Shown piece after piece: positions 13,434 through 46,913 of a DNA stretch of 64,000 nt. The position numbers and the translations under genes are program-made. Under the pieces are notes generated by a model that made no database searches, was not told where the DNA came from, and worked only from the letters and a program-made list of their open reading frames with translations. The stretch's first letter is position 1. Every line of letters begins with the position of its first letter. The stretch is from a virus: positions 1 to 64,000 of IMG/VR virus record IMGVR_UViG_3300001919_000028, one strand, 5' to 3'.

Positions 13434-14379
13434 GGTTGTCAGAATCACTCCGGAAATGTATGAGGAGTGCAGGCAGGAGTTGGAGAAGTGCTGCCAGAAC
13501 GCGAAGCTCTCCGACGGCAAAATCACATTCACCAAGGTTTTCACCGCTGAGAAGCGGAAGGCGACCCTGTTCTTCACCGATGAAGCGTGGGCGAAGATGA
13601 CCATGCTTCTCCAGGAGTTCGACAAGGAGGTGGCGTGGCATGGCGTCGCCTACCGGCTGGACACCGAGGGGAAGGACGAGTACGTCATCACCGATATCCT
13701 GGTCTATCCCCAGGAGGTCTCCGCCGCGACAGTGGAGATGGACGTCGAGAAGTACGCCAAGTGGCTGATGGAAAACGACGAGGACGAGCGGTTCCAGAAT
13801 ATCCATATGCAGGGTCACAGCCATGTCCGTATGGCACCCAATCCGTCGGCGACCGACATCACACATCAGGAGGAGATCCTCGCCCAGCTCGACGATGATA
13901 ACTTCTACATCTTCATGATCTACAACAAGTCTTTCAGCCGGAACATCAAGATCTACGACATGAAGAAGAACATCCTGTTCGAGGATGGGGATGTCGAGGT
14001 CAAGCTCCAGAGTGCAGTCACTGGCTTTGACGAGTTCATCGCGGATGCCAAGGCAAAGGTCGTGTCCAAGACCTACACCTACAACCAGGGCAGCTACCAG
14101 AGGCCGTCCTATCAGACCCCGACGTATCAGCAGCCGGGGACCTACAAGGGGAACGTGCCGTACAATCCGCTCAGTCCGGCACCTGTCGCCCCTGTCACCC
14201 CGGCTTCCGGGGCGAACCCTCCCAAGCAGGAGAGCAAGAAGAAGGAAAAGGAAAAGAGAAAGGTTCAGATCGGGGCCGGTTGGCACGGTGTGAACGGATA
14301 TGAGCAGGAGTCGCTGTACGGCATGGGCGGCCAGCTCGACGATGACGATGACCCGTATTGGTCCGGATCAGGGAGGTAA
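13426..14379 (+). CDS. JAB/MPN+ (JAMM) metalloprotease (deubiquitinase-like) with Pro/Gln/Tyr-rich C-terminal tail
   Basis: JAMM motif E…HMQGHSHVRMAPNPSATD (HxHx7Sx2D). Confidence 0.8.
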   Translation: MSKVVRITPEMYEECRQELEKCCQNAKLSDGKITFTKVFTAEKRKATLFFTDEAWAKMTMLLQEFDKEVAWHGVAYRLDTEGKDEYVITDILVYPQEVSAATVEMDVEKYAKWLMENDEDERFQNIHMQGHSHVRMAPNPSATDITHQEEILAQLDDDNFYIFMIYNKSFSRNIKIYDMKKNILFEDGDVEVKLQSAVTGFDEFIADAKAKVVSKTYTYNQGSYQRPSYQTPTYQQPGTYKGNVPYNPLSPAPVAPVTPASGANPPKQESKKKEKEKRKVQIGAGWHGVNGYEQESLYGMGGQLDDDDDPYWSGSGR

Positions 14380-14383
14380 CAAG

Positions 14384-15055
14384 ATGGATCTTTCCAAGAG
14401 CTACGAATATTTCCAGCCTGAGAAAATCGACGCCCGCATCCACATCATCGGGTGCGGGTCCGTGGGGTCCACCGTGGCGGAGAATCTCGCCAGGAGCGGC
14501 GTGTCGAAGATGACGCTATGGGATTTCGATGTGGTGGAACCGAAGAACCTGGCAAACCAGATGTTCCGGCAGAAAGATGTCGGTCAGCGCAAGGTGGATG
14601 CTCTGCTGGATATCCTGACCGAGATCAATCCGGACATCGTCGATGATGTGAAGCTCCAGCCGGATGGCTGGAAAGGCCAGCAGCTCAACGGGTATGTGTT
14701 CCTGTGCGTGGACAACATCGAACTGCGGAAGCAGATCGTGGAGATGCACATGAACAATCCATACGTTAAGGCCATGTTCGACTTCCGCACCCGGCTGGAG
14801 GATGCCCAGCACTACGCGGCAGACTGGTCGAACTACAAGATGAAGAAGGATTTCCTGAACTCCATGAACTTCTCCCATGACGAGGCCAAGGAGGAGACGC
14901 CGGTCTCCGCCTGCAACGTGACCTTGTCCGTCTGCCCCACCGTCCGGGTCATCTGCGCCCTGGGTGTGGCCAACTTTATGAACTTCTGGAACGGGAAGGG
15001 CTTGAAGAAGCTGATTCTGGCCGACTCGTTCAACTTCTCGCTGGACGCCTTTTGA
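14384..15055 (+). CDS. ThiF/MoeB/E1-like adenylyltransferase (Ubl-activating enzyme)
   Basis: Rossmann motif IHIIGCGSVGSTVAENL; downstream Cys cluster C-x6-C-x6-C; E1-family size. Confidence 0.85.
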   Translation: MDLSKSYEYFQPEKIDARIHIIGCGSVGSTVAENLARSGVSKMTLWDFDVVEPKNLANQMFRQKDVGQRKVDALLDILTEINPDIVDDVKLQPDGWKGQQLNGYVFLCVDNIELRKQIVEMHMNNPYVKAMFDFRTRLEDAQHYAADWSNYKMKKDFLNSMNFSHDEAKEETPVSACNVTLSVCPTVRVICALGVANFMNFWNGKGLKKLILADSFNFSLDAF

Positions 15056-16223: not shown

Positions 16224-16571
16224 CCTCAACAGCACCATCTGTAACGCATTTACCTCGCAAGAGGAGCTTCACGCCGATGGTTGAAGTAACAAATAGCTGA
16301 GAAGAAAAAGAATGCCCCGAGATGCCTGGCGAAGGTGGACCGAGTCTGGGAACGAGGCCATCGCATCCACGAAGGTTAAGAACTCGCACGGGAGTAGAGA
16401 GAAATCCCCGAATCCCAAGGATTTCGTCTCCTGCACCTGGTGAGAGAACCGGCAGTCCGAAGACTCACAGAGCTGCAATGCGCTGCGGGCGCCTTCATCG
16501 CAGATCACGAGCCCAGTCGTCTTACTTATGTAGGTTACAGATATCTTATAATGAAAAGAGGTGCGGAGATA
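16224..16571 (+). ncRNA. Structured noncoding region upstream of the RT (candidate retron msr/msd or RT-associated ncRNA)
   Basis: 348 bp without a credible ORF; several hairpins (e.g. AAATCC…GGATTT, CTGCG…CGCAG). Confidence 0.35.
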
Positions 16572-17708
16572 ATGGTTTATATGACTGTCATGCAGTCTCC
16601 GATGTACCATCAGATGACGCTGGACGAGTTCCTGTTCAACACCTATAAGGAAAGTCCGGTCGTCAACTACAATGTCGGCAACACCAGGACTTACAAGTTC
16701 GACAATATCAGTCGTAGATTTTTGGACAGCATCGACGTCCCCAGTTTGATTTTGACTCTCCAGGCGTTCAACAACAGCACGGAAGCGCTCCGCCGGGTCA
16801 AGCGGTCGGACCTCTACATCACATTCTATATCCCCAAGAAGAGCGGAGGGCTCCGTAAGATTGACGAGCCGAAGCCGGAATTGATGGATGCGCTTCGCCG
16901 CCTCAAGACGATTTTCGAGCGGGACTTCCACACTCTGTATCACACCAGTGCATTTGCGTACATCCAAGGGCGGTGTACCGTTGATGCGATCAAGCGTCAT
17001 CAGGCCAACGAGAGCAAGTGGTTTGGCAAGTATGACCTCCACAACTTCTTCGGAAGCACGACGCTCGAGTTCGTCATGCAGCAACTCAGCATGATCTTCC
17101 CGTTCAGCGAAGTGGTGAAGCTGGAGTCCGGGCGTGCCGAGCTGGAGAAAGCGCTGGAACTTGCGTTCCTCAACGGCGGTTTGCCGCAGGGAACGCCGTT
17201 CTCTCCGACCATCACCAATGTGATGATGATCCCCGTTGACTACGAGCTGTCACACGGGTTCCGCAACCTCAACAACCAGAGCTTTGTCAACACCAGATAC
17301 GCGGATGACTTCACGATTTCCTCCAAGTATGAGTTCGACCCAAAGGAAATCGAGAAGTTCATCACGGATACGTTGGCTCAGTTCAATGCGCCGTTTACAT
17401 TGAACGAGTCAAAGACGAGATACGGCTCCAGTTCCGGACGCAACTGGAACCTTGGGCTGATGCTCAACAAGGACAACGTGATTACGGTCGGCCACAAGCG
17501 GAAGCGTCAGCTCCAGACGATGCTCCACAATTACATTCTTGACAAAAGGAATGGGATCAGGTGGGATCTGCACGATGTGCAGGTAATGGACGGGAACATC
17601 AACTACTGCCGGATGGTCGAAGAGGAGGCGACAAACAACATCATCAAGCATATCAATGAGAAAATGGGCGTCGATGTTTGCAGAATGATAAGAGAAGACC
17701 TGAGATAA
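16572..17708 (+). CDS. Reverse transcriptase, retron/UG (defence-associated) type
   Basis: RT motifs IPKKSGGLRKI, AF.YIQGR, YDLHNFFGS, LPQGTPFSP, YADD, NLGLMLNKDN…KRKRQLQTMLHN; QG..SP (not DGR-type). Confidence 0.85.
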   Translation: MVYMTVMQSPMYHQMTLDEFLFNTYKESPVVNYNVGNTRTYKFDNISRRFLDSIDVPSLILTLQAFNNSTEALRRVKRSDLYITFYIPKKSGGLRKIDEPKPELMDALRRLKTIFERDFHTLYHTSAFAYIQGRCTVDAIKRHQANESKWFGKYDLHNFFGSTTLEFVMQQLSMIFPFSEVVKLESGRAELEKALELAFLNGGLPQGTPFSPTITNVMMIPVDYELSHGFRNLNNQSFVNTRYADDFTISSKYEFDPKEIEKFITDTLAQFNAPFTLNESKTRYGSSSGRNWNLGLMLNKDNVITVGHKRKRQLQTMLHNYILDKRNGIRWDLHDVQVMDGNINYCRMVEEEATNNIIKHINEKMGVDVCRMIREDLR

Positions 17709-18802: not shown

Positions 18803-18878
18803 GCTGGAGTAATTCAGTTGGTAGAATAGGGCTCTCGTACAGCCAATGTCCCCGGTTCAAGTCCGGGCTCCAGCTCCA
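18803..18878 (+). tRNA. tRNA-Thr (anticodon CGT), CCA encoded
   Basis: Acceptor GCTGGAG/CTCCAGC, anticodon loop CTCGTAC (G27·A43 mismatch), T-loop GGTTCAAGTCC. Confidence 0.7.
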
Positions 18879-18905
18879 CAAACCTCGCCGCCCAGGTTGC
18901 AAGCG

Positions 18906-18932
18906 AACGGTGCCTGCACCGTTGCTGTTTTT
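18906..18932 (+). terminator. Rho-independent terminator (AACGGTGC-ctg-CACCGTT + GCTGTTTTT)
   Basis: Stem-loop plus T-run after the tRNA. Confidence 0.6.
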
Positions 18933-19102
18933 GAGGGTGGCAAGAGTGTGCGGTGGCGAAATTAAAAACGCAGGGAAATGTTAGGAAAGCCCCGTAGTTA
19001 AAGACTGATTGGAAGTAAGGGGCACAGCGGTTCGAAACCCACTAACCTGGGCAGACGTCGGCCCTTGCATGGGTGAAAGTCCCATGCCCGCACACTTGAT
19101 AT

Positions 19103-19170
19103 GCTCTCATAGCTCAAATGGCAGAGCTGGCCTGTAAGGCTGAGTGCAGGTTCAAATCCTGCTGAGAGCG
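19103..19170 (+). ncRNA. Atypical or truncated tRNA-like element (68 nt): good acceptor, D and T arms but shortened anticodon region, no CCA
   Basis: GCTCTCA/TGAGAGC acceptor, T-loop GGTTCAAATCC; anticodon arm does not fold canonically. Confidence 0.35.
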
Positions 19171-19298
19171 AATGCCGGGGGACGCCCCGTCTGTGAAAGC
19201 CGGACGGATCAAAACCGAAAGAGCCGCTCAATTTTGTGAGTGAGGCACAAGCGTGGGTAAGCGGCAATTTGTGAGGCCCACGACCTCACACTTTATTT

Positions 19299-19374
19299 GC
19301 TGGTATAGCTCAGTTGGTAGAGCTGCTGTTTTGTAAGCAGCGGGTCGCGGGTTCGAGTCCTGCTACCAGCTCCA
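19299..19374 (+). tRNA. tRNA-Thr (anticodon TGT), CCA encoded
   Basis: Acceptor GCTGGTA/TACCAGC, anticodon loop TTTGTAA, T-loop GGTTCGAGTCC; preceded by a hairpin plus T-run. Confidence 0.85.
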
Positions 19375-19477
19375 CCGCAGGTTTTGTTCATTTTCCTGCG
19401 GTCACTTCCTTTCTTTGACATATTCCCGCTCGCTTTGTTCATCCGTCAAGCATTGAGGAGTTGATGCTTTCGGTGAA

Positions 19478-19502
19478 ACCGGTTCGAGTCCGGTGTCGGC
19501 TG
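19478..19502 (+). ncRNA. tRNA 3'-fragment (T-arm CCGGTTCGAGTCCGG + acceptor 3' strand), no CCA, no 5' partner
   Basis: Shares a 15-mer with the 11859-11911 minihelix. Confidence 0.35.
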
Positions 19503-19535
19503 AACGTGTGGCGATAACGGGGAACCGACCGCCTA

Positions 19536-19610
19536 TTGGGGCGTAGCCAAGTGGTAAGGCACGGGACTTTGACTCCCGCATCCGCTGGTTCGAGTCCAGC
19601 CGCCCCAGCC
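19536..19610 (+). tRNA. tRNA-Gln (anticodon TTG), U1:A72, CCA encoded
   Basis: Acceptor TGGGGCG/CGCCCCA, anticodon loop CTTTGAC, T-loop GGTTCGAGTCC. Confidence 0.8.
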
Positions 19611-19637
19611 AACCATCTCAATAAGGAGGCAACATCT

Positions 19638-20171
19638 ATGACAAGATCTTATTTTCTGGACCAAGTCAATTCGTGGTCAGAGCTGATTGACCTGTGTTCC
19701 GACGAAGGTTGTGATATCTGCTCAGATATTTACAGCAACGATGACATCGACAGCATGATTGATGACGATGTTGCCGAGGCGATCCGGAGCGAGTCATGGC
19801 GCTACATCCGCGACAACCTCGCCGACATCGACACCGACTATGACTACTACCGCTGCGACGGTATGTTCGACTATGTCGGCATGGATGACACTGACTTCGA
19901 CACCTATAAGGACGACGTCCTCGACTGGATGGACGACTGTGACCGCTGGGAGCCGGAGGAGGACGAGGAAGAGGAAGAAGAGGAGTATGTCGAGGAGGAG
20001 CCGCAGGAAGCGCCGCCTCCGCAGGAGGATTTCTCCGTCGGTGATCTGATCTCCATGTGCCTCGTGGATATGGCGAATGCCAAGGTGGCCGAGGAGAACC
20101 GCCGCGCTTCCGACGAAGAGAGTATCAGGAAGTTCCTGAGCGTAGAAGAGATCGACTTTTTGCCATTCTGA
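19638..20171 (+). CDS. Hypothetical highly acidic protein (D/E-rich, EEEEEE tract)
   Basis: AAGGAGG RBS then ATG at 19638; the ORF-track extension to 19536 overlaps tRNA-Gln. Confidence 0.55.
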   Translation: MTRSYFLDQVNSWSELIDLCSDEGCDICSDIYSNDDIDSMIDDDVAEAIRSESWRYIRDNLADIDTDYDYYRCDGMFDYVGMDDTDFDTYKDDVLDWMDDCDRWEPEEDEEEEEEEYVEEEPQEAPPPQEDFSVGDLISMCLVDMANAKVAEENRRASDEESIRKFLSVEEIDFLPF

Positions 20172-20316
20172 AATCAAAACCGGTGACGCGGTTTTAGATT
20201 ACCCAGGCGTTGTGCAGATTGATTGTGATACATAAACACCTTCGGGTGGAAAAATGCACAATATCTTCTCGCAGATTGTGGAAGAATGAGCCCGCTGGCT
20301 TCGCGCTTTTTGAGAT

Positions 20317-20350
20317 CACAAAAAGTTTTAACGGGGTTAAAACTTTTTGT
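20317..20350. repeat. Perfect 15-bp inverted repeat CACAAAAAGTTTTAAC-ggg-GTTAAAACTTTTTGT in the structured leader upstream of the NAD gene cluster
   Basis: Read directly; related to the 5381-5411 palindrome (shared CAAAAAGTTTT core). Confidence 0.55.
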
Positions 20351-20500
20351 CGATCCAAAAAGACGCGTCGCTTTGTGCATATGCCGCCCTGACAATCGAC
20401 GGGCGGCATACGGACAACGTCTGGGGAGCCGGGAATGGGGGAGCGGGAGGAGCCCGCTCCCCGCCCGGTGTTTTATTATGAAGAAACAGGGGTAAGGAAA

Positions 20501-21049
20501 ATGAAAGTTCTCGTTGTTGTCGATATGCAAAAAGATTTCGTCGATGGTTCGCTCGGAACGAAAGAGGCCGTCGCCATCGTCCCGAATGTCGTGGATAAGA
20601 TCCTCAAGTTTGACGGCGACGTCATCGCCGTGACCCAGGACACCCACCACGACAACTACCTGGAGACCCAGGAGGGCAAGAAGCTCCCGGTGAAGCACTG
20701 CATCAAAGGTTCCGAGGGGTGGATGCTGGCACCGGCTATCACCGCTGCACTCTCAACGCAGACCGGTATGGTGGTCATGGACTTCTTCCATAAGGAGACC
20801 TTCGGTTCTGTTGAGATGTGCGAGTGGCTGTCTGAACTCAATGCCGAGGAGGAGAGCATCGACGAAATCGAAGTGGTCGGCCTGTGTACTGACATCTGTG
20901 TGGTATCCAACGTGCTGATGATGAAGGCATATATGCCGGAAGTTCCCATCACAGTGGACGCCTCCTGCTGTGCCGGTGTCACGCCGGAGAGCCATGCTGC
21001 GGCCATCACGACCATGAAAGCCTGCCAGATCAATGTGATTGGCGAGTAA
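20501..21049 (+). CDS. Isochorismatase-family cysteine hydrolase, nicotinamidase (PncA)-like
   Basis: VVDMQKDF…, catalytic Cys in GLCTDICV; RBS AAGGAAA. Confidence 0.75.
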   Translation: MKVLVVVDMQKDFVDGSLGTKEAVAIVPNVVDKILKFDGDVIAVTQDTHHDNYLETQEGKKLPVKHCIKGSEGWMLAPAITAALSTQTGMVVMDFFHKETFGSVEMCEWLSELNAEEESIDEIEVVGLCTDICVVSNVLMMKAYMPEVPITVDASCCAGVTPESHAAAITTMKACQINVIGE

Positions 21050-21338
21050 CTTTGCAGTGTATGCGGTGGCGGAATAGACACTATCCTCATTGTGGTAAAG
21101 CCTACGGAGCCATATCGTGACCAAATAATCGGGGCGTCTGAGGCGCTTCTAAGCAGCCCGCCCGGTGGCGCACGGTACAGTCAGTCTCCCAAACGGCAAT
21201 AGTAGACGCAAACTAAGGGGTTGCGGGTGGAGTCGTCGCTGAAATAGAGCTGGCACTTCCGAGACACCCGTATGCGTGGTGCAAATCCACGCCCGCATAT
21301 GAATTTCAAGTTTTAAGGCATGAAAGGAGTGCCTGACC

Positions 21339-22130
21339 ATGATAGAAATCAACAAGAACAAGGTGGAGCTGAACCGGTTCCCGGACGGGACACTGGCTCT
21401 GCGGTACTACGACAACTCTCCCGTGCAGAATATCCGGTGGCGCTACGACGGGGACGAGGAGTGCATGGCCATCTGGTATCTCGTCCACCATATCCGTGAG
21501 TCGTATCCGCTGACGGAGATCAACCTCTATCTTCCATACCTCCCCAACGCGAGGATGGACCGGGTGAAGAACGAGGACGAGGTGTTCACGCTCAAGTGGT
21601 TCGCCAAGTTCATCAACGGTCTTCGCTTCGACCGGGTGTGGGTGACAGATCCGCACTCCAATGTCGGTATCGCCCTTCTGGATAGAGTATCGCAGGAGGA
21701 CATCAAGCCGAACGTCTACGGCTGGGTGCTCAATGATATTGAACGCGGAACGCATGATACCGTCCTATGTTTCCCCGACGAGGGAGCGTCCAAGAAGTAC
21801 GCCAGCATGTTCCCCGATTATCCCCATGTGTTCGGCATCAAGCACAGGGATTGGCGGACCGGCAAGATCCTCGGCCTGTCCATCACCAATGAAGAGCTGG
21901 TGAGCGGCCATCAGGTTCTGATCGTGGACGACATCTGCTCTCGCGGCGGGACGTTCATGCACACTGCCGCCGCACTGAAAGAGGCCGGCGCAACCAAGGT
22001 CTACCTGTATGTCACCCACTGTGAGAACAACATCTTCAACGGCGACGTGCTGTCCTCCGACCTCATTGAGCACGTCTACACGACGGACAGCATTTTCCGG
22101 GGCAGCCACCCGAAAATCACGGTTTTATAA
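21339..22130 (+). CDS. Ribose-phosphate pyrophosphokinase (PRPP synthetase)-like protein; possible ADPR-PP synthetase of a phage NAD+ reconstitution pathway
   Basis: Type I PRTase PRPP-binding motif VLIVDDICSRGGTF; two-domain Prs-like length; adjacent to the NAMPT-family gene. Confidence 0.7.
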   Translation: MIEINKNKVELNRFPDGTLALRYYDNSPVQNIRWRYDGDEECMAIWYLVHHIRESYPLTEINLYLPYLPNARMDRVKNEDEVFTLKWFAKFINGLRFDRVWVTDPHSNVGIALLDRVSQEDIKPNVYGWVLNDIERGTHDTVLCFPDEGASKKYASMFPDYPHVFGIKHRDWRTGKILGLSITNEELVSGHQVLIVDDICSRGGTFMHTAAALKEAGATKVYLYVTHCENNIFNGDVLSSDLIEHVYTTDSIFRGSHPKITVL

Positions 22131-22187
22131 ACCAATCATTTCCCATAACCAGCGGAAATGATATATTTCAAAAAGGAGTGTATAGCG

Positions 22188-23711
22188 ATGATTTCCTACA
22201 ATCCTCTGCTGTGCCTTGACTTCTATAAGACAGCCCACGTGGCGCAGTATCCGGCAGGTCTCACCAAGATGGTGTCCTACTACACGCCCCGCATGAGCCG
22301 TCTTGGCGATACGGATAAGGTCACACTGTTCGGGCTCCAGGCTTTCATTCAGGACTACCTGGTTGACGCCTTCAATCAGGACTTCTTCAACCGGGACATT
22401 GAGGAAGTGGTTGCGGAGTATAAGCGAGTTCTCAACGCCACCATCGGAACCGACGGTGTTGGCGAGGCCCGTGTCCGTGAGCTCCACGATCTCGGCTTTC
22501 TGCCTCTGGAGATCCGGGCTGTCCCGGAGGGCGTGAGAACCGACATCAAGGTTCCGCAAATCGAGATCACCAACACCCATCCCGACTTCGTGTGGTTGGT
22601 CAACACCATCGAGACCATGCTCTCCGCCACCATGTGGCACACCCAGGTCTCGGCGGAGGTCGGCTACCGCTATCGCCAGATCGTCGAGGAGTTTGCAGAG
22701 CGCACCTGTGATGACAGCGTGGTTCGCTCCAGGCTTCTCGGCGATTTCTCTATGCGCGGGCAGGAGAGTGTGGAGAGCGCCACCAAGAGTTCCGCCGCCT
22801 TCCTCCTGAGCTTCCTGAACACCGCCACCGTTCCGGCTATCCTATGGCTGGAGGAGCACTATGACTGCGACATCGGCGTGAATCAGGTCGGGTACGGCGC
22901 ACTCTCCACCGAGCACAGTGTGATGTGCTCCAACTACGCCGTGGACGGCGACGAGGAGACGCAGATCCGCCGCTTGCTCACCGAGATCTATCCCCATCAG
23001 AGTTTCTCCATGGTCAGCGACAGCTATGACTACTGGAACTTGGTCAACGACATCCTCCCCAAGTTGAAGGACGAGATCCTTGCCCACGACGGCTGCCTCT
23101 CCGTTCGCGGTGACAGCGGCGACCCCGTGGAAATCGTGACGAAGACCGTGTTCGCCCTCTGGGACATCTTCGGCGGGACCGTGAACAGCAAGGGCTTCAA
23201 AGTCCTTGACCCCCATGTCAAGGCGCTCTATGGGGACAGCATCACGCCGCAGCGGTGCCGTGAGGTCTACACCATTCTGGAGCAGAACGGGTTCGCCATC
23301 AACAACGTGTCCCTCGGCGTCGGTTCCTTCTCCATGCAGTGTCTGGAAACGCTGGAGCTGGACGGGTATCAGTTGTCACACCCGTGCGCTCCACGCCCCA
23401 TGACATACAAGCCCTACACCCGTGACACCTTCGGCATCGCCGTCAAGGCCACCTATGCCGAGGACAAGGACGGCAATCCCATCATGATTTTCAAGAACCC
23501 AAAGACAGACAACGGGCACTTCAAGAAGTCCCAGCGCGGCTGCTGCCGTGTGTTCAAGACCAAGTACGGTTACGACTATGTGGACGGTCTGACCTGGAAA
23601 CAGGCCAACACTGGTGAGAACGAGCTCTACCCGGTGTTCGTGAACGGCCTCTTCATCAAGCGGTACACTCTGGACGAGGTGCGGCAGAACCTGCACAACG
23701 GAAAGTTCTGA
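22188..23711 (+). CDS. Nicotinamide phosphoribosyltransferase family protein (NadV/NAMPT-like; could be Namat of NARP1)
   Basis: N-terminal YNPLLCLDFYKTAHV signature and about 500 aa length typical of NAMPT/NadV; AAGGAG RBS. Confidence 0.75.
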   Translation: MISYNPLLCLDFYKTAHVAQYPAGLTKMVSYYTPRMSRLGDTDKVTLFGLQAFIQDYLVDAFNQDFFNRDIEEVVAEYKRVLNATIGTDGVGEARVRELHDLGFLPLEIRAVPEGVRTDIKVPQIEITNTHPDFVWLVNTIETMLSATMWHTQVSAEVGYRYRQIVEEFAERTCDDSVVRSRLLGDFSMRGQESVESATKSSAAFLLSFLNTATVPAILWLEEHYDCDIGVNQVGYGALSTEHSVMCSNYAVDGDEETQIRRLLTEIYPHQSFSMVSDSYDYWNLVNDILPKLKDEILAHDGCLSVRGDSGDPVEIVTKTVFALWDIFGGTVNSKGFKVLDPHVKALYGDSITPQRCREVYTILEQNGFAINNVSLGVGSFSMQCLETLELDGYQLSHPCAPRPMTYKPYTRDTFGIAVKATYAEDKDGNPIMIFKNPKTDNGHFKKSQRGCCRVFKTKYGYDYVDGLTWKQANTGENELYPVFVNGLFIKRYTLDEVRQNLHNGKF

Positions 23712-23723
23712 GGAGGGTTTTCT

Positions 23724-24476
23724 ATGCTCTGTGATGTCAAGAGAACGAAGAACGAAATCGTACAGTGGATTCGGAACTACTTTGCCCGCAACGGCCAGAC
23801 GTGTTTTGCCGTTGTCGGTATCTCCGGCGGCAAGGACTCCAGCGTGGTCGCCGCCCTGTGTGTCGAGGCGCTGGGGAGAGATCAGGTCATGGGTGTCCTG
23901 ATGCCCAACGGGGTGCAGGACGATATTGAGTGCAGCTATCAGCTCGTGAAGCACCTCGGTATCCCACACAAGGTGGTCAACATCGCCGAGCCGTTCAACG
24001 CCATGGTCGCCCAGCTCAACGAGGCACTCCCGGTCAGCCGTCAGGCCATCGTAAATCTGCCGGCACGTCTCCGCATGGCCACGCTGTATGCGGTGGCTCA
24101 GTCCCTGCCCTACGGCGGGAGAGTCGCCAACACCTGCAACAGGTCTGAGGACTATGTCGGTTACGCCACCAAGTTTGGCGACGCCGCCGGGGATTTCAGT
24201 CCCTTGCCCCATCTGATGGTGCATGAGGTCAAGCAGCTCGGCTACGAGCTCGGCCTACCGAAGAACCTTATTGAAAAGGTCCCTACCGACGGCCTGTGTG
24301 GTTCCACTGACGAGGATAACCTGGGCTTTACATACGAAACGCTGGACAACTTCATCATGACCGGTAACTGCGAAGACCCTGAGATCCGGGCGAAGATCAT
24401 GGACCTGCACGCCAGGAACCTCCATAAGCTCCGCCCCATGCCGGCGTATGGCGACCCGTACACGACGTATGTATGA
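23724..24476 (+). CDS. nadE: NH3-dependent NAD+ synthetase
   Basis: PP-loop GISGGKDSS, ARLRMATLYAVA, KFGDAAGDFSPL, PTDGL…DE matches NadE. Confidence 0.85.
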   Translation: MLCDVKRTKNEIVQWIRNYFARNGQTCFAVVGISGGKDSSVVAALCVEALGRDQVMGVLMPNGVQDDIECSYQLVKHLGIPHKVVNIAEPFNAMVAQLNEALPVSRQAIVNLPARLRMATLYAVAQSLPYGGRVANTCNRSEDYVGYATKFGDAAGDFSPLPHLMVHEVKQLGYELGLPKNLIEKVPTDGLCGSTDEDNLGFTYETLDNFIMTGNCEDPEIRAKIMDLHARNLHKLRPMPAYGDPYTTYV

Positions 24477-24547
24477 GCCATATCTGGCGCTGGTCATCGT
24501 ACTGATTCTCATTGTCTTAACTCACGACGAGGGTGGTGGAAATAATC

Positions 24548-25825
24548 ATGGAGGATTTGCGTAACGCACTGGATGCTGTTCGGCTTTTGCAAAATACGAC
24601 CGGCTCAAAGGCGAAGCAGGAAGTGCTCGCCAGGAATGCCGGCAACGAGTATTTCCGGCAGCTTATCTACTACGCCTGCCACCCTCGCCTTACTTACAAG
24701 GTATCAGAGACGACGCTGAACCAGCGGTGCAGGCCGAACTCGGCCATCACACAGACCTTCACCACGATTTTCGATATCTGTTCAAGCCTGTCTCACAGAA
24801 AGGCAATCGACGATGTGACACTCTATCAAGTCCTCACCTTTCTGGAGCTGCAGACGCCGGAGGACAGAGTCCTGTATCAGAAGCTGTTGGCGAAAACGCT
24901 CCGGCTTGGAGTCACCGCCAAGAGTATCAACAAAGCGATCCCCGGCCTGATTCCTGAGTGGGAAGTCCAGCAGGCATATCCCATCGAGAAGTACCCGCTG
25001 AAAGATGGCGTGTGGTTTTCCGTTTCGCAGAAGCTGAACGGTGTCCGTGCTACCTTTTATGACGGGAAGATGATTGCCCGGAGCGGAGCGATCATGCCTG
25101 GGCTCGACCACATCGTAAATGAGCTGGAAAAGTACCCGGACTTCGTTTATGACGGGGAAATCACCTTGAAAGACAAAGGTGAGCTGTCCGACAACGAAGC
25201 ATTTCGCATAACCACGGGAATTTTGAACGGTGAAAATGGTGATAAAACGAGGGTTTGCTTCACAATTTTCGATATGCTCCCGGAAATGGACTTCGACCGG
25301 GGTTACAGCACCGCAACCTACCGGACACGCCGCCGGTGGATGGACGAGCTCACCAAGTTCCATCCGGGGAACGAGAATGTGTCCATTCTCCCGTCGCTCT
25401 ACTCCGGCACAGACCAGTCGGTTATCGCCCCGCTGCTGGACCGTATGGTCGCCGAGGATAAAGAGGGGCTCATGGTCAACCTTGATGTTCCTTACCAGTG
25501 CAGGAGGCACAGCGGTATCTTAAAGGTCAAGCGGTTCTACACGGTTGACCTCCCCATCGTCCGGGTCGAACCGGGAACCGGCAGATGCTCCGATGTGATG
25601 GGGTCCATCGTGGTGGACTTCATCGGTGCTGAGGTCGGCGTCGGGTCCGGGTTCACTGACGAGCAGCGCAAGTGGTTCTGGGAGCACCGCGAGGATGTCA
25701 TCGGAACACTTGCCGAAATCAAGTACAAGGAGATCTCGTTCGACAAGGATACGTCCAAACGCAGCTTGCAGTTTCCCGTTTTTGTTGCTCTGCGGACGGA
25801 CAAGGATGATGTGAGTTTCGGATGA
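24548..25825 (+). CDS. ATP-dependent DNA ligase (nucleotidyltransferase motif I variant KLNGVR)
   Basis: Motifs KLNGVR (I), FVYDGEI (III), EGLMVN (IV), LKVKR (V), FPVFVALRTDKD (VI). Confidence 0.7.
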   Translation: MEDLRNALDAVRLLQNTTGSKAKQEVLARNAGNEYFRQLIYYACHPRLTYKVSETTLNQRCRPNSAITQTFTTIFDICSSLSHRKAIDDVTLYQVLTFLELQTPEDRVLYQKLLAKTLRLGVTAKSINKAIPGLIPEWEVQQAYPIEKYPLKDGVWFSVSQKLNGVRATFYDGKMIARSGAIMPGLDHIVNELEKYPDFVYDGEITLKDKGELSDNEAFRITTGILNGENGDKTRVCFTIFDMLPEMDFDRGYSTATYRTRRRWMDELTKFHPGNENVSILPSLYSGTDQSVIAPLLDRMVAEDKEGLMVNLDVPYQCRRHSGILKVKRFYTVDLPIVRVEPGTGRCSDVMGSIVVDFIGAEVGVGSGFTDEQRKWFWEHREDVIGTLAEIKYKEISFDKDTSKRSLQFPVFVALRTDKDDVSFG

Positions 25826-26796: not shown

Positions 26797-27019
26797 TCTG
26801 GACGCCTTGAAATCCAATATCGAAAAGCTCGCCGCGATGCTGATCCATTCCGAAGTCCACCGGGATTATGACGAGAACCTGGATGGAGAGTGGGAGTGCT
26901 GCGGCGAGTTTCCGTATTACATTACCAGCGACGACGAGAGGTTCTGGGATTTTGTGGACGCTCTGGAACATGAAATCAGTTGGCTGATGTCGGAGGTGCA
27001 GGATGATACGAATCGTTGA
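26780..27019 (+). CDS. Hypothetical protein
   Basis: ORF with overlapping coupling. Confidence 0.45.
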   Translation: MIQMTNLDALKSNIEKLAAMLIHSEVHRDYDENLDGEWECCGEFPYYITSDDERFWDFVDALEHEISWLMSEVQDDTNR

Positions 27020-27467
27020 GGGAGACCTGCTGAGGTCCGGCGCAAGATACATATGCCATCAGGTGAATTGCCAGGGCGTGATGGGAAGCGGTGTAGCCAA
27101 GCAGATCCGGGAGAAGTGGCCGGATGTCTACGACCGGTACAAGGTGCTGTGCGACCGGTACAGCGACAACAGGGAGCAGCTTCTCGGCAGGGCGCAGGGT
27201 GTCCGCGTTACGGGTTACTCTGTGGTCGTCAATCTGTTTGGCCAGAACCAGTATGGCAGAGACGGCAGCCAGTACACAGACATAAACGCTCTGCGCCGTG
27301 GCTGTGAAACGCTCGCCGTTCATGTGAATCTCGGAGATACCATCGCCATGCCGTACCGGATCGGCTGTGGTCTTGGCGGCGGAGACTGGGGAAAGGTTAT
27401 GGATATGCTCACGGGAGTTTTCCGTGAGCACTACCTTACCTTATATATCAAATGTAAAGGAGGATAG
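27003..27467 (+). CDS. Macro-domain protein (ADP-ribose binding/hydrolase)
   Basis: IVEGDLL…ICHQVNCQGVMGSGVAKQI…GCGLGGGDW macrodomain signature. Confidence 0.75.
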   Translation: MIRIVEGDLLRSGARYICHQVNCQGVMGSGVAKQIREKWPDVYDRYKVLCDRYSDNREQLLGRAQGVRVTGYSVVVNLFGQNQYGRDGSQYTDINALRRGCETLAVHVNLGDTIAMPYRIGCGLGGGDWGKVMDMLTGVFREHYLTLYIKCKGG

Positions 27468-30066: not shown

Positions 30067-30633
30067 ATGGGTCAGCGGTTGAACATTGAAATCACAAACA
30101 GAAACGGCTGTATCGCCAACTGCTACTACCACTGGTCTGCCTACACCTTTTCCTCTATCGCTATGACCAGACAAATCCTGGCCGCTATCGACGAAGACGA
30201 CGAGGAGTTCGGAACCGAGTACGCGGTCATGCTGTTGGAGCGTACAGGCGGCGGTGTTAATGAAGAGGAGCGGGAGCGGATCAAAGCGGACGCAAGGTAT
30301 TCCGGTATGCACTTCAATGAGTGCAGCGACCGGAACAGAGGTCTGATCGCCGTGACCAAGGAGGGAATCCGGGACACCAGGAATTGGGAAGAGGGCCGTG
30401 TGACGGTCAATCTGGACACCAGGACGGTGGACTTCGACGTGTTCTGGAGGTACAACTCCGTAGAGGAATACGAAGAAGAGAACGAAACTGATGCCCCGGA
30501 TGGTATCTATAAAACGGCCATGGACTTTTCCAACATCCCGTTCGATTCGTTCGATGAATTTGCGGCAGTGGTAGCAGAACACCCCGACGGTGTGGTGGAT
30601 GACAACGGAACTTACTACCGTTGGATTGAATAA
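30067..30633 (+). CDS. Hypothetical protein
   Basis: ORF with RBS. Confidence 0.5.
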   Translation: MGQRLNIEITNRNGCIANCYYHWSAYTFSSIAMTRQILAAIDEDDEEFGTEYAVMLLERTGGGVNEEERERIKADARYSGMHFNECSDRNRGLIAVTKEGIRDTRNWEEGRVTVNLDTRTVDFDVFWRYNSVEEYEEENETDAPDGIYKTAMDFSNIPFDSFDEFAAVVAEHPDGVVDDNGTYYRWIE

Positions 30634-30643
30634 GGAGGCCGAC

Positions 30644-31144
30644 ATGAATAAAAGATTAAAGATGCTTTGTATCACCGCGATGGGTATCGCGCTTTATGTC
30701 GCGCTGAGTATGACGATCAAAATCCCAATCGTCGGGCATATCGCCCTGGACCTTGGTTATATCGTTCTCGGCGTGTACTGCTACCTGTTCGGAGGCGCAG
30801 CCGGTGCTGTGGTCGGCGGTGCCGGCTGTGTGTTTGTCAGTCTGTTGACCTCCGGTTGGTTCCCTCCCGGCTGGCTGCTTGGCAACCTGTTCATTGGTGC
30901 AGTGTGCGGGAGAGGCTATGTGAGAGAAGACAACAGGCGGGCGCACCGTATGAACTACTGTCTCACTTACGCCGCTGTGTTCGTCGGAATTGCGGTCATC
31001 AAGCCTGTCGTAGAGTGCATTTTATACCAGCTCCCGCTTTGGGCCAAGGTTTCCACCAGCTCAATCGGGGCAATTATGGACGCTCTTGTGATGTTCGTTG
31101 GCCTTGCCATTGCGCCGCGCCTTTCACGGATGGTAAGCAGGTGA
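30644..31144 (+). CDS. Polytopic membrane protein, ECF-transporter S-component-like (possible vitamin/precursor uptake)
   Basis: 4-5 transmembrane helices, Gly-rich motifs; AAGGAGG RBS. Confidence 0.5.
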   Translation: MNKRLKMLCITAMGIALYVALSMTIKIPIVGHIALDLGYIVLGVYCYLFGGAAGAVVGGAGCVFVSLLTSGWFPPGWLLGNLFIGAVCGRGYVREDNRRAHRMNYCLTYAAVFVGIAVIKPVVECILYQLPLWAKVSTSSIGAIMDALVMFVGLAIAPRLSRMVSR

Positions 31145-33069: not shown

Positions 33070-34092
33070 ATGACGATTGAACAAATCAAAGAAATGATTG
33101 CCGGGGAGCAGTATGATTTCCTGTGGACGAACCCGCATCTGTCGTACAAAATCATGTTCCTGACCATGGGAGGCAGCTACGCCTACGGAACCAACGTGGA
33201 GACATCTGATGTGGATGTGCGCGGTTGTACGCTCAACAGCAGAAGCGACATCCTTGGCCTGACGAGTTTCGAGCAGGTGGTCCACACGCAGACGGACACC
33301 GTCATCTACTCATTCAACAAGCTGGTCAGCCTCCTGCTGAACTGCAATCCAAACACGATTGAACTTCTCGGCTGCAAGCCGGAGCATTACTTCTTCGTTT
33401 CTCCCATTGGACAGGAGATGATCGACAACAAGAAGATTTTCCTGTCCCGCCGGGCGGCTGAGTCCTTCGGCGGATATGCCACACAGCAGCTTCGCAGGTT
33501 GAAGAACGCCCTCGCCAGGGACAAGATGTCCCAGGCCGACAACGAGGAACATATCCTCGACGCCATGAAGCGGGCGGTCAAGTCTTTCAGGGATAAGTAC
33601 AGCCACTTCGACAAGGGAAGTGTCAGACTGTACACCGCAGACAGTGAGCGGGACGATCTCGACCGCGAGGTTTTCGCTGACATCCACTTGGACAAGTATC
33701 CGGTGCGTGATTTCAGCATTATGATGAACTCCCTCTCCAACGTGATCGGGAACTACGAGAAGCTGAACCACAGGAACCATAAGAAGGACGACGCCCACCT
33801 CAACAAGCACGCCATGCACCTTATCCGGCTGTACCTGATGTGCCTGGATATTTTGGAGAAGGGCGAAATCAACACCTACCGTGCAAACGACAGGGATTTT
33901 CTGCTCAGTATCCGCCACGGATATTTCCAAAAGGAAGACGGTATGTTCCGGCAGGAGTTCTTCGATATTGTGGAGGACTATGAGAAGCGCCTGCAATATG
34001 CAAAGGCGAACACCTCCCTCCCGGACCAGCCGGACATGAAAGTGGTCGGAGAGTTTGTGGAAAGCGTGAACAGGAGGGCGATTGATGAATAG
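33070..34092 (+). CDS. Pol-beta-superfamily nucleotidyltransferase with GS-x3-G-x5-SDxD motif (cGAS/SMODS/MNT-like)
   Basis: GGSYAYGTNVETSDVDVRG motif near the N-terminus; directly upstream of the CCA-adding enzyme. Confidence 0.65.
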   Translation: MTIEQIKEMIAGEQYDFLWTNPHLSYKIMFLTMGGSYAYGTNVETSDVDVRGCTLNSRSDILGLTSFEQVVHTQTDTVIYSFNKLVSLLLNCNPNTIELLGCKPEHYFFVSPIGQEMIDNKKIFLSRRAAESFGGYATQQLRRLKNALARDKMSQADNEEHILDAMKRAVKSFRDKYSHFDKGSVRLYTADSERDDLDREVFADIHLDKYPVRDFSIMMNSLSNVIGNYEKLNHRNHKKDDAHLNKHAMHLIRLYLMCLDILEKGEINTYRANDRDFLLSIRHGYFQKEDGMFRQEFFDIVEDYEKRLQYAKANTSLPDQPDMKVVGEFVESVNRRAIDE

Positions 34093-35422
34093 GTATTCTC
34101 TCCCGCTTGGTGCGGCGTTTATCATTGACCCGCTCCAGGAGAACGGGTTTGAAGCCTATGTGGTCGGCGGCTGTGTGAGAGACAGGCTGCTTGGTCGTGT
34201 CCCGAAGGATTGGGACATCTGCACGTCCGCCTCCCCACAGCAGGTCAAGGAGATCTTTGGCGACAAGCGGGTCATTGAGACCGGTCTCCAGCACGGGACC
34301 GTCACCATCGTGATGCCGGACGGCTTATACGAGGTGACCACCTTCCGAGTAGATGGGACGTACTCCGATAACCGGCACCCGGATGAAGTGAAGTTCGTCA
34401 AAAGCCTGGAGGAAGACCTCGCCCGCCGTGACTTCACTATCAACGCCATGGCCTACAATGACCGGCGCGGTTTGGTAGACCCGTTCGGCGGCGAGAAGGA
34501 CTTGGCCGACGGTGTGATCCGCTGTGTCGGCGATGCAGCCGCCCGCTTCCACGAAGATGGGCTGCGTCTGATGCGGGCTTTGCGGTTTGCCTCCAAGTAT
34601 GGGTTCCGCATCGAAGACGGAACGGCGGAGGCGATCCACAAATGCTCTCACCTGCTCCGGAACATCGCCGTGGAGCGCATCAACACAGAGCTTTGCAGGC
34701 TGTTGTGCGGTAAGAATGTTCTCCAGGTTCTGCTGGACTACCCTGACGTTATCACCGAAATCATCCCGGAGATGAAGCCGTGTGTCGGGTTTCGTCAGAA
34801 CAATAAGTACCACGAGTACAACGTATATGACCACATCGCCCATGCGGTTTCCAACTACACAGGCGAGGACACCGTAGTCAATGTCACGCTTCTGCTCCAC
34901 GACATTGGCAAGCCCAACTGTTACACGGAGGACGAGCGTGGCGGTCACTTCTACGGCCACGGTGTGGTCAGCAGGGACATCGCGGAGGGCGTCCTTACCA
35001 AACTCAGGTTTGATAATCAAACCAAGGCCGATGTACTGGAGCTGGTTCTGTTCCACGACTCAGTCATTGAGCCTACGCCGAAGACGGTACGCAGATGGCT
35101 GAACAAGATTGGCCCGGAGCAGTTCTACCGTCTGCTGGAGGTCAGAATGGCGGACATCCTCGCCCACTCAAAGGATACGCAGGCCAGCAGGATCGAGCGT
35201 TGCAACGCGCTTCGCACCATTGTCGGCGACATCCTTGAACAGCAGCAGTGCTACACCGTCAAGGATCTGGCCGTCAACGGATACGATGTCATGCAGTCCG
35301 GTGTTCCGGAGGGGAAAGAGGTTGGCGCGGCGCTGAACGAAATCCTGGATAAGGTCATCGGCGGCGAGCTTGAAAACGAGCGGTCTGCGCTGCTCGAATA
35401 TCTGTCAAAGCGCAAAGCATGA
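34082..35422 (+). CDS. cca: CCA-adding tRNA nucleotidyltransferase with HD domain
   Basis: Class II NTase head GGCVRDRLLG…DWD, RRDFTINAMA, HD motif LLHDIGKP. Confidence 0.85.
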   Translation: MMNRYSLPLGAAFIIDPLQENGFEAYVVGGCVRDRLLGRVPKDWDICTSASPQQVKEIFGDKRVIETGLQHGTVTIVMPDGLYEVTTFRVDGTYSDNRHPDEVKFVKSLEEDLARRDFTINAMAYNDRRGLVDPFGGEKDLADGVIRCVGDAAARFHEDGLRLMRALRFASKYGFRIEDGTAEAIHKCSHLLRNIAVERINTELCRLLCGKNVLQVLLDYPDVITEIIPEMKPCVGFRQNNKYHEYNVYDHIAHAVSNYTGEDTVVNVTLLLHDIGKPNCYTEDERGGHFYGHGVVSRDIAEGVLTKLRFDNQTKADVLELVLFHDSVIEPTPKTVRRWLNKIGPEQFYRLLEVRMADILAHSKDTQASRIERCNALRTIVGDILEQQQCYTVKDLAVNGYDVMQSGVPEGKEVGAALNEILDKVIGGELENERSALLEYLSKRKA

Positions 35423-46354: not shown

Positions 46355-46913
46355 GTTCTACATCGCAGACTGGCATTACGGCCACAAGAATGTCCTCGCG
46401 TTCGACAACAGGCCGTTCACGACTGTGGAGGAAATGAACGAAGCCCTCGTGAAGAACTGGAACGACGCGGTAAAGCCTGACGACATCGTGTATGTTCTTG
46501 GCGATATGTTCTGGTGCAAGTCAACGGAAGCGGTTCCTGTTCTTGATAAGCTGAACGGCGTCAAATTCCTGATTCGCGGGAACCACGACAGAAGCAACGA
46601 CAGCCGCTTCATCAAGAAATTCGCCAAAGTCACCGATTATCTTGAGGTCGAAGACAATAGCCGCCATGTGGTTCTCTGCCACTACCCCATCCCGTGCTAT
46701 AAGAACCACTTCTACGGGTGGTATCATCTCTACGGCCATGTCCACACGTCGTTCGAGTACAACATGATGGAGCACGACAAGGTTCTCATGAGTGCGCTGT
46801 ACAGCAGGCAGTGCCGGATGTTCAATGTCGGCGCGATGATTCCCTATATGGGTTATACACCGAGGACGCTGGACGAGATCCTCGCGGCAAATCAGGAGGA
46901 GGGAACGACATGA
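46347..46913 (+). CDS. Calcineurin-like metallophosphoesterase (second copy)
   Basis: DWHYGH…GDMF…GNHD…GHVH motifs. Confidence 0.8.
   Translation: MSKFYIADWHYGHKNVLAFDNRPFTTVEEMNEALVKNWNDAVKPDDIVYVLGDMFWCKSTEAVPVLDKLNGVKFLIRGNHDRSNDSRFIKKFAKVTDYLEVEDNSRHVVLCHYPIPCYKNHFYGWYHLYGHVHTSFEYNMMEHDKVLMSALYSRQCRMFNVGAMIPYMGYTPRTLDEILAANQEEGTT

Follow-up and report, generated by a model that had tools for sequence, protein, structure and literature searches.

A four-gene NAD+ cluster in a gut phage contig

We analyzed a 64,000-nt stretch of DNA (the window; positions 1 to 64,000 of the IMG/VR virus record IMGVR_UViG_3300001919_000028, a gut-metagenome phage contig) that carries a cluster of genes related to the metabolism of nicotinamide adenine dinucleotide (NAD+). 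A preliminary description of this DNA had listed four consecutive genes, encoding a nicotinamidase-like protein, a PRPS-family protein, a NAMPT-family protein and NadE. We found all four as co-oriented open reading frames (ORFs) on the + strand between 20501 and 24476:

20501-21049, + strand: PncA-like nicotinamidase, 182 amino acids (aa); Isochorismatase PF00857, E 8e-23
21339-22130, + strand: Adps-like ADP-ribose pyrophosphokinase (predicted), 263 aa, PRPS fold; phrog_619 'ribose-phosphate pyrophosphokinase', E 7e-71
22188-23711 (alternative start 22158), + strand: Namat-like transferase; phrog_448, E 7e-157; NAMPT_N and NAPRTase
23724-24476, + strand: NadE, NH3-dependent NAD+ synthetase, 250 aa; NAD_synthase PF02540, E 3e-53

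The NAMPT-like gene itself is real, but its start is better placed at 22188 than at 22158. This start is the most likely one because it yields 507 aa; a 99%-identical relative in the databases has this length, and so does the gene called on the source contig (ENA ERZ964370, 85 kb, gut metagenome). The Adps-like and Namat-like genes lie 57 nt apart on the + strand, and their adjacency is kept in all related loci. A simple scan of the + strand from 20302 to 24600 flagged no terminator.

A megablast search of the module against 50,697 phage records gave no match, and the records closest to it are unannotated human-faecal contigs and Phage Phass-1. Related loci were drawn from IMG/VR, GTDB genomes and INPHARED, and their neighborhoods were scored by tblastn; a locus is called full-flank below if each of its sides spans 4 kb or more. 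Relatives occur in assemblies of Dysosmobacter segnis, Hominicoprocola fusiformis and Lachnotalea glycerini and in many Oscillospiraceae and Lachnospiraceae metagenome-assembled genomes. Because the relatives sit in these assemblies, the hosts of the module-bearing phages are probably gut Clostridia.

The PRPS-like and NAMPT-like proteins are nearest to Adps and Namat

NAD+ depletion is among the commonest bacterial anti-phage strategies, and three phage pathways that rebuild NAD+ (NAD+ reconstitution pathways, NARP1-3) have been described since 2024. In NARP1 (SPbetaL1, Bas63, ICP1; Osterman et al., bioRxiv 10.1101/2024.02.11.579819; PMC12774641; PMC13586617), adjacent co-oriented genes encode Adps and Namat. 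The preliminary description had recognized this arrangement in the window and had named classical salvage by Prs and NadV as the alternative. In classical salvage, phosphoribosyl pyrophosphate (PRPP) and nicotinamide would give nicotinamide mononucleotide (NMN), which a host adenylyltransferase would convert to NAD+; the Pfam and PHROG names of the two proteins agree with it. We ran the comparison of profiles that the description had proposed, Adps/Namat versus Prs/NadV, and its outcome favors Adps and Namat.

The Adps and Namat of SPbetaL1 have both been characterized biochemically. The Adps-like protein is 37% identical to SPbetaL1 Adps (E 3e-53), whereas the best canonical PRPS structure matched it with only E 1e-11. 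It falls below the cut-offs of all 11 NCBIfam PRPS models (TIGR01251, 85 bits versus a cut-off of 113; the PRPS equivalogs all far below theirs), and also below that of Pfam Pribosyl_synth (26.0 bits versus 27). With ICP1 Adps as the structural reference, and with the catalytic and ADP-ribose (ADPR) contact residues taken from PMC13586617, we found that F18, R87, H121, D161, K185, D212, D213 and F221 are all kept; K168 of the window protein corresponds to the catalytic K185 of ICP1 Adps. This residue test is permissive because several of these residues are common to PRPS. The PP-loop has the SPbetaL1 form. SPbetaL1 Adps forms its product only from ADPR and ATP, which led its authors to conclude that it is not a Prs (bioRxiv 10.1101/2024.02.11.579819). 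On its profile scores and kept residues, the window protein is a member of the Adps subfamily and not a canonical PRPS.

The transferase is 43% identical to SPbetaL1 Namat (E 4e-139). A sequence search of the PDB returned 9w5w/9w5x first (E 1e-121), with true NAMPTs at E 1e-43 to 1e-54, and a Foldseek search with an AlphaFold2 (AF2) model of the transferase placed the same two entries ('Namat in complex with NAD / nicotinamide') at the top, with TM 0.81-0.85. The model has a mean pLDDT of 72.5, and the pocket and clamp loops are exactly where it drops under 50; because of this low confidence, it was used for the fold match only and not to draw conclusions about the pocket. The Namat core residues H245, R306, D308, F189, R192, D13', Y15', G360, D361 and R399' do not vary among the window protein and 122 clade members, and the catalytic His of the window transferase is H243 (codon 22914-22916).

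The active-site entrance was compared using the clamp features of Namat as defined in PMC12774641. At 390-392, where NadV and NAMPT read GGG, the transferase carries GSF with the Namat-type clamp aromatic. Its selectivity-clamp loop, PRMSRLGD, is long, of Namat-like length, with an Arg that aligns with the stacking R40, and T398, R399 and D400 (SPbetaL1 numbering) are kept. The clamp-helix motif is split by an insertion:

23331-23402, + strand: 24-aa insertion, aa 382-405, dividing the clamp-helix motif as GSF / insertion / TYKPYTRD

The motif reads GS-x-Phi-x-Phi-x-Phi-TRD, with aromatics at positions 3 and 7; the window protein keeps the F, has a Pro at position 7 (Y396) and a Tyr one residue later. 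Among close homologues the stretch between GSF and TRD varies from 17 to 35 aa, and AF2 confidence is low across the insertion. Some homologues have a second large insertion, of ~80-90 aa, after RGDSGDPVE (L025:1779-3575, L027:5980-7737), which is Cys- and aromatic-rich and absent from the window transferase.

Because the pair is nearest to Adps and Namat, and because the transferase has the GSF entrance and a long clamp loop with the stacking Arg, classical salvage by Prs and NadV is unsupported; judged by sequence, the pair is of the NARP1 kind. Classical salvage would also leave PncA and NadE without a role, and the Asp that would bind nicotinamide is absent (Ala at 215). A crude scan of the 64-kb window for a single motif, (H/T)xGH, which is a weak test, found no signature of an adenylyltransferase for NMN or nicotinate mononucleotide (NaMN) that could serve as a partner. 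We consider classical salvage extremely improbable.

Three positions of the pyridine pocket are changed together

Compared with SPbetaL1 Namat, the window transferase carries the changes G213N, D215A and A242S in the pyridine pocket:

22818-22826, + strand: codons N211-T212-A213, in place of SPbetaL1 Namat G213-T214-D215 (NTAT versus GTDT)
22905-22907, + strand: codon S240, in place of SPbetaL1 Namat A242, a nicotinamide-pocket residue

In SPbetaL1 Namat, D215 hydrogen-bonds the amide of nicotinamide, and the D215A mutation lowers NAD+ synthesis ~8-fold (PMC12774641). The corresponding residue of human NAMPT, D219, determines nicotinamide specificity (PMC7096376, PMC12143786), and human nicotinate phosphoribosyltransferase has a Ser at the structurally equivalent position (PMC4442680).

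The same Ala is present at 215 in all 120 closest database homologues. When we aligned 157 homologues from the fetched loci, exactly two of the seven Namat nicotinamide-pocket residues (PMC12774641) were found to switch, D215 and A242, and they switch together. D215 is replaced by A in 114 sequences and by S in 8, and A242 by S in 122/122 sequences from the main altered-pocket clade, as also in the Phass-1 group, while A242 stays Ala in 35/35 D/E-type sequences of this alignment (a later tblastn count contains one D-type locus, L129, with Ser at 242). G213, a third nearby position, changes to N, K or R; the catalytic residues are all invariant. The altered pocket was found in 151/189 related loci, which have the following residues at 213/215/242:

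Altered pocket: N-A-S, 130 loci; R-A-S, 12; K-S-S, 8; L-A-S, 1
D/E type: G-D-A, 36 loci; G-D-S, 1; G-E-A, 1

The NadV outgroups have G-D-A.

PncA and NadE accompany the altered pocket

The PncA-like protein and NadE both have intact catalytic residues. The best solved relatives of the PncA-like protein are nicotinamidases (P. horikoshii 1ILW/1IM5 and M. tuberculosis PncA 3PL1), and its catalytic D8, K98 and C133 and metal ligands D47, H49 and H66 align with those of the P. horikoshii enzyme. In homologues from the related loci, five of these six residues are invariant (136/136) and K98 is present in 133/136. Because the protein scores far below the cut-off of the NCBIfam equivalog NF008623 (32 bits versus 174), we regard it as a divergent member of the nicotinamidases. 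NadE scores 182.7 bits against TIGR00552 (cut-off 63.65), and its best PDB matches are the NH3-dependent NAD synthetases 2E18 and 3FIU. Its PP-loop, SGGKDS (residues 34-39), is kept in 145 homologues with a single exception, G35 to S.

Both genes track the pocket. Full-flank loci with the altered pocket have PncA in 114/116 cases, NadE in 114/116 and Adps in 116/116; in full-flank D/E-type loci the counts are 0/27, 0/27 and 27/27, respectively. The linkage of PncA and NadE holds down to 43% transferase identity and over at least four gene orders (PncA-Adps-Namat-NadE; PncA-Adps-Namat-Macro-NadE; Adps-Namat-Macro-NadE-PncA; and the same orders with unrelated genes inserted). With the queries applied, no homologue of PncB or NadD was found in the module or within 6 kb on either side in the 189 loci.

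The same association is present in the code-15 gut phage Phass-1 and 11 relatives, all of which have the order nicotinamidase-Adps-transferase-(HAD-like)-NadE (12/12 loci). The transferase of this group combines an A/S-type pocket with a fully canonical Namat clamp (GAYTYQYVTRD, with no clamp insertion). Neighbor-joining (NJ) trees with NadV as the root gave the main A/S clade 100% bootstrap support and put the Phass-1 group on a branch of its own; a single origin of the altered pocket was recovered in only 12/100 bootstraps. The trees hint at more than one joint transition of pocket and partners. NadE homologues were found in only 44 INPHARED records. We considered and rejected NAD salvage as the role of the NadE-like genes of cyanophages and pelagiphages; two marine-phage examples sit in glycan-modification clusters.

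These results could be read as ordinary NARP1, in which the Namat-like enzyme would still join nicotinamide to ADPR pyrophosphate (ADPR-PP) to give NAD+, and PncA and NadE, as accessory genes, would separately push the Preiss-Handler route of the host (PncB, NadD) and thereby raise NAD+. The Preiss-Handler route is common in gut Clostridia, and the homology to Adps and Namat is clear. SPbetaL1 Namat with D215A keeps some activity, at a level ~8-fold lower (PMC12774641), and NARP1 operons gain accessory genes such as Adpp (bioRxiv 10.64898/2026.01.28.702374). Ordinary NARP1 would leave unexplained, however, why three pocket positions change jointly and only where PncA and NadE are present, both genes being absent from all 27 full-flank D/E-type loci. 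With a nicotinamidase co-expressed, a nicotinamide-dependent Namat would have a competitor for its substrate, and a loss of the amide-binding Asp that is conserved throughout the clade does not square easily with unchanged specificity. We thus hold ordinary NARP1 to be unlikely.

A predicted route to NAD+ through nicotinate

Taken together, the pocket change and the near-invariable linkage to PncA and NadE suggest one nicotinate-routed pathway rather than NARP1 with extra genes. We lean, by a little more than an even chance, toward the operon being a four-enzyme variant of NARP1 that would rebuild NAD+ via nicotinate. Defense enzymes that deplete NAD+ split it into ADPR and nicotinamide. PncA would convert the nicotinamide to nicotinate, and Adps would form ADPR-PP from ADPR and ATP. 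The Namat-like enzyme, without the amide-binding Asp, would then join nicotinate to ADPR-PP to give nicotinate adenine dinucleotide (NaAD) and pyrophosphate, and NadE would use ATP and NH3 to convert NaAD to NAD+. The four enzymes would form a linear route with every gene used and no step missing, and we infer for it a role in counter-defense.

For the more specific proposal that the transferase is an undescribed nicotinate:ADPR-PP transferase, we find the case evenly balanced. Such an enzyme would make NaAD directly, bypassing NaMN and NadD, within a self-contained 'deamidated NARP1' made up of PncA, Adps, the transferase and NadE. With the same even balance, the proposal includes that a three-residue signature would mark the variant (N/K/R-x-A/S ... 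S-T-E-H versus G-x-D ... A-T-E-H), that the variant would often be accompanied by a candidate ADPR-1''-phosphate phosphatase, and that the module would be abundant both in code-15 gut phages such as Phass-1 and in the phages and prophages of Clostridia from human and animal guts.

Several points weigh against the nicotinate route. In the literature searched, no reaction between nicotinate and ADPR-PP has ever been described. The clamp helix is interrupted by an insertion of variable length and Y396 is replaced by Pro, so the use of ADPR-PP is not certain. An Ala at 215 would remove a repulsive carboxylate, yet alone it creates no nicotinate specificity, and NAPRT needs other determinants besides this position (PMC4442680). 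It is exactly in the pocket loops that the AF2 model cannot be relied on. That the Phass-1 group stands apart comes from a crude NJ tree in which long-branch attraction is possible, and since the main A and S clades are sisters, the covariation reflects mostly one or two events and not ~150. Finally, the route would cost a second ATP, and its selective advantage is unexplained.

The pocket changes, which point to nicotinate, would also fit a booster of the Preiss-Handler route based on PRPP. In that case the Prs-like protein would make PRPP, PncA would supply nicotinate, the NAMPT-family enzyme would form NaMN, host NadD would convert it to NaAD, and the phage NadE would complete the synthesis. 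Host NadD is universal to our knowledge, the transferase matches the NCBIfam model PRK09198 'nicotinate phosphoribosyltransferase' (455 bits versus a cut-off of 405), and the disruption of the clamp helix, with Pro for Y396, agrees with a PRPP donor. Namat also keeps PRPP activity in vitro (PMC12774641; bioRxiv 10.1101/2024.02.11.579819). On the other hand, the Prs-like protein groups with Adps and not with PRPS (E 3e-53 versus E 1e-11) and fails all PRPS cut-offs, and SPbetaL1 Adps makes its product from ADPR and ATP only (bioRxiv 10.1101/2024.02.11.579819). The transferase keeps the clamp aromatic F, where NadV has GGG, and the stacking Arg; the Phass-1 group has the same pocket and partners with a fully canonical Namat clamp, and the module is recurrently linked to a macro gene resembling ADPR-1''-phosphate phosphatases. 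A PRPP-based booster is therefore highly unlikely in our view, and we keep to ADPR-PP as the favored donor for the predicted nicotinate route.

We compared the module with the pathways that it resembles. With NARP1 it shares the adjacent co-oriented Adps and Namat genes, the intact catalytic residues, the clamp aromatic and the stacking Arg, and it is expected to rebuild a dinucleotide from ADPR. It differs from NARP1 in the three pocket positions, in the 24-aa insertion in the clamp helix and the Pro at 396, and in being accompanied by PncA and NadE, which none of the sampled D-type loci has; NaAD, not NAD+, is its predicted product, and the cost would rise by a second ATP. As in the Preiss-Handler route (PncA, PncB, NadD, NadE), deamidation of nicotinamide would come first and amidation of NaAD by NadE last, with nicotinate as the predicted substrate, but the PncB and NadD steps would be replaced by one transfer of nicotinate onto ADPR-PP.

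NARP2 (NadV and Nmnat, Vibrio phage KVP40) and NARP3 (PnuC and NadR, PMC13464706) are likewise phage-encoded routes of NAD+ restoration. The NadV of NARP2 is a homologue of the transferase with ~28% identity that has GGG for GSF and keeps the G-D-A pocket, and none of the window ORFs examined was identified as Nmnat, PnuC or NadR. Gut phages with clustered NAD genes, including pncA and nadE, have been described as jumbo-phage NAD 'biosynthetic gene clusters' (PMC11662467); that survey reports clusters of the pncB-nadD-nadE and nadR-nadM kinds, takes NAMPT to be classical, and describes neither the Adps/Namat pocket variant nor its linkage with PncA and NadE. In the literature searched (NARP1, NARP1-AP, NARP2, NARP3 and the jumbo-phage clusters), we found no NARP1 that is linked to PncA and NadE or that uses nicotinate, and no Namat clade lacking D215.

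If the nicotinate route is correct, it would be a fourth phage route to NAD+ with a new chemistry, NaAD made straight from ADPR-PP, and phages would have rewired the pyridine specificity of Namat by a few pocket changes. It would also provide a simple signature for annotating gut-virome contigs, hundreds of which carry the label 'NAMPT' or 'Prs' at present, and the swapped pocket residues would be a handle for engineering specificity in the NAMPT family. The question would then be why phages of gut Clostridia spend an extra ATP on a detour through nicotinate; possible reasons are a host nicotinamidase, niacin availability in the gut, an irreversible pull, or evasion of defenses that act on nicotinamide or NAD+.

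A macro protein and a DNA ligase downstream of the module

The preliminary description had seen an ADPR/NAD theme in a macro-domain protein and a DNA ligase near the four genes. Both are present:

24548-25825, + strand: ATP-dependent DNA ligase; phrog_114, E 1e-71; PF14743, PF01068; part of the context, with no step in the pathway
27003-27467, + strand: macro-domain protein, Poa1p/Adpp-like, 154 aa; PF01661; phrog_335 'phosphatase', E 3e-39

For the macro protein, identity is 41% with a 'Poa1p-like Appr-1''-p processing protein' of Bacillus phage Izhevsk and 29-35% with macro genes beside Adps in Vibrio phages; there is also a weak NCBIfam match to the DarG macro domain. The gene lies 2.5 kb, or five ORFs, downstream of the module, past the ligase and three small ORFs; in many related loci, macro homologues stand directly between Namat and NadE. 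Adpp is the ADPR-1''-phosphate phosphatase of NARP1-AP, a published system of Adps, Adpp and Namat from Vibrio phage Gary (bioRxiv 10.64898/2026.01.28.702374). Because it resembles this phosphatase, the macro protein fits the ADPR theme as a candidate Adpp-like enzyme, one that may turn ADPR-1''-phosphate into ADPR and thereby enlarge the substrate pool of Adps. NARP1-AP differs from the window in having Adpp inside the operon (within two genes), where the window macro gene is more distant, and in lacking PncA and NadE. The ligase half of the theme did not hold, since the enzyme is ATP-dependent and hence not a consumer of NAD+. Its gene directly follows NadE in the window and in ~20 relatives. 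An ATP-dependent ligase might free phage nick-sealing from the NAD+-dependent ligase of the host.

In contrast to NARP1-AP, the macro slot between the transferase and NadE is taken up in the Phass-1 group by a small, DxDxT-containing HAD-like protein (Phass-1, L178:6555-6974; also L179-L183), which could be an analogous phosphatase.

The leader upstream of PncA is structured and varies among relatives

The preliminary description had also called the leader of the module densely structured, with four hairpins and a perfect 15-bp palindrome. The features of this region are:

20172-20500, + strand: structured leader, 329 nt, between an acidic-protein gene and PncA
20306-20362, + strand: long A/T-rich hairpin or DNA palindrome with 27-nt arms, from the inverted-repeat scan
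20428-20479, + strand: G+C-rich hairpin with a perfect 10-bp inner stem (20438-20447 / 20453-20462) that an outer stem extends, followed by TGTTTTATTAT

The leader folds with a minimum free energy of -149 kcal/mol, compared with -101 +/- 6 for shuffled sequences (z = -7.9; 0/100 shuffles as stable), so the dense structure is borne out, with at least five hairpins rather than four (20172-20200; 20288-20301, with a T-run; 20306-20362; 20373-20417; 20428-20468). The palindrome is the core of the 20306-20362 hairpin, a perfect 15-bp stem, ACAAAAAGTTTTAAC / GTTAAAACTTTTTGT (20319-20333 / 20337-20351), with a 3-nt loop. This hairpin, a candidate operator or RNA element, is one of only two close-armed inverted-repeat pairs that a scan of the 64-kb window detected (seed 10, loop at most 15); the second is an 80% palindrome at 24575-24604. 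The 289-nt spacer between PncA and Adps is no more structured than shuffles (z = +0.8).

The G+C-rich hairpin ends 22 nt 5' of the PncA ATG, ahead of the ribosome-binding site, and has the look of a terminator or attenuator. It went unflagged in the simple terminator scan, and no equivalent was found before PncA in relatives, some of which have other long structured leaders and many none. A search against Rfam (E <= 1) returned only tRNAs, the leader itself matching no family, and the leader sequence is unconserved in relatives. For these reasons a riboswitch or other known RNA element, which we had considered, is unsupported, and nothing connects the leader with NAD in function; we treat it as a probable local regulatory or terminator region and not as part of the module.

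Other genes in the window and in related loci

Directly upstream of the NAD module lies a tRNA array (18803-19611) with Thr-CGT, Thr-TGT and Gln-TTG genes called by ARAGORN. A fourth tRNA (19103-19170) was found with Rfam at 49 bits and was not called by ARAGORN. Because the ORF at 19536-20171 overlaps tRNA-Gln, the acidic protein more likely starts at 19638. Farther upstream, a reverse-transcriptase ORF (16551-17708, PF00078) has the retron St85 family reverse transcriptase as its best NCBIfam match, at 162 bits, below the cut-off of 235; homologues of it lie near the NAD module in 7 related loci.

An S component of an energy-coupling factor (ECF) transporter is encoded 6 kb downstream of NadE (30599-31144; PF07155, PF12822). 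Niacin import would fit a nicotinate route, though the substrate of this protein is not assignable and we did not retain it as a niacin importer.

Several genes of RNA repair occur in the window or near the module in its relatives. At 33070-35422 of the window, a gene for RlaP, of an RNA-repair pathway Pol-beta family, adjoins a gene for a CCA-adding tRNA nucleotidyltransferase, and 22 related loci have RlaP homologues no more than 6 kb from the NAD module. By motifs only, an RtcB-like RNA ligase gene stands between Adps and the transferase in 16 loci (e.g. L004:4160-5410), and a KptA/Tpt1-like RNA 2'-phosphotransferase gene inside the module in 4 loci (e.g. L151:5042-5581). Tpt1 uses up NAD+ and releases ADP-ribose 1'',2''-cyclic phosphate; through this product, tRNA repair would be connected with the Poa1p-like macro phosphatase. 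The window also encodes a ThiF/E1-like adenylyltransferase (14300-15055) and a NifS/IscS-like cysteine desulfurase (46910-48088).

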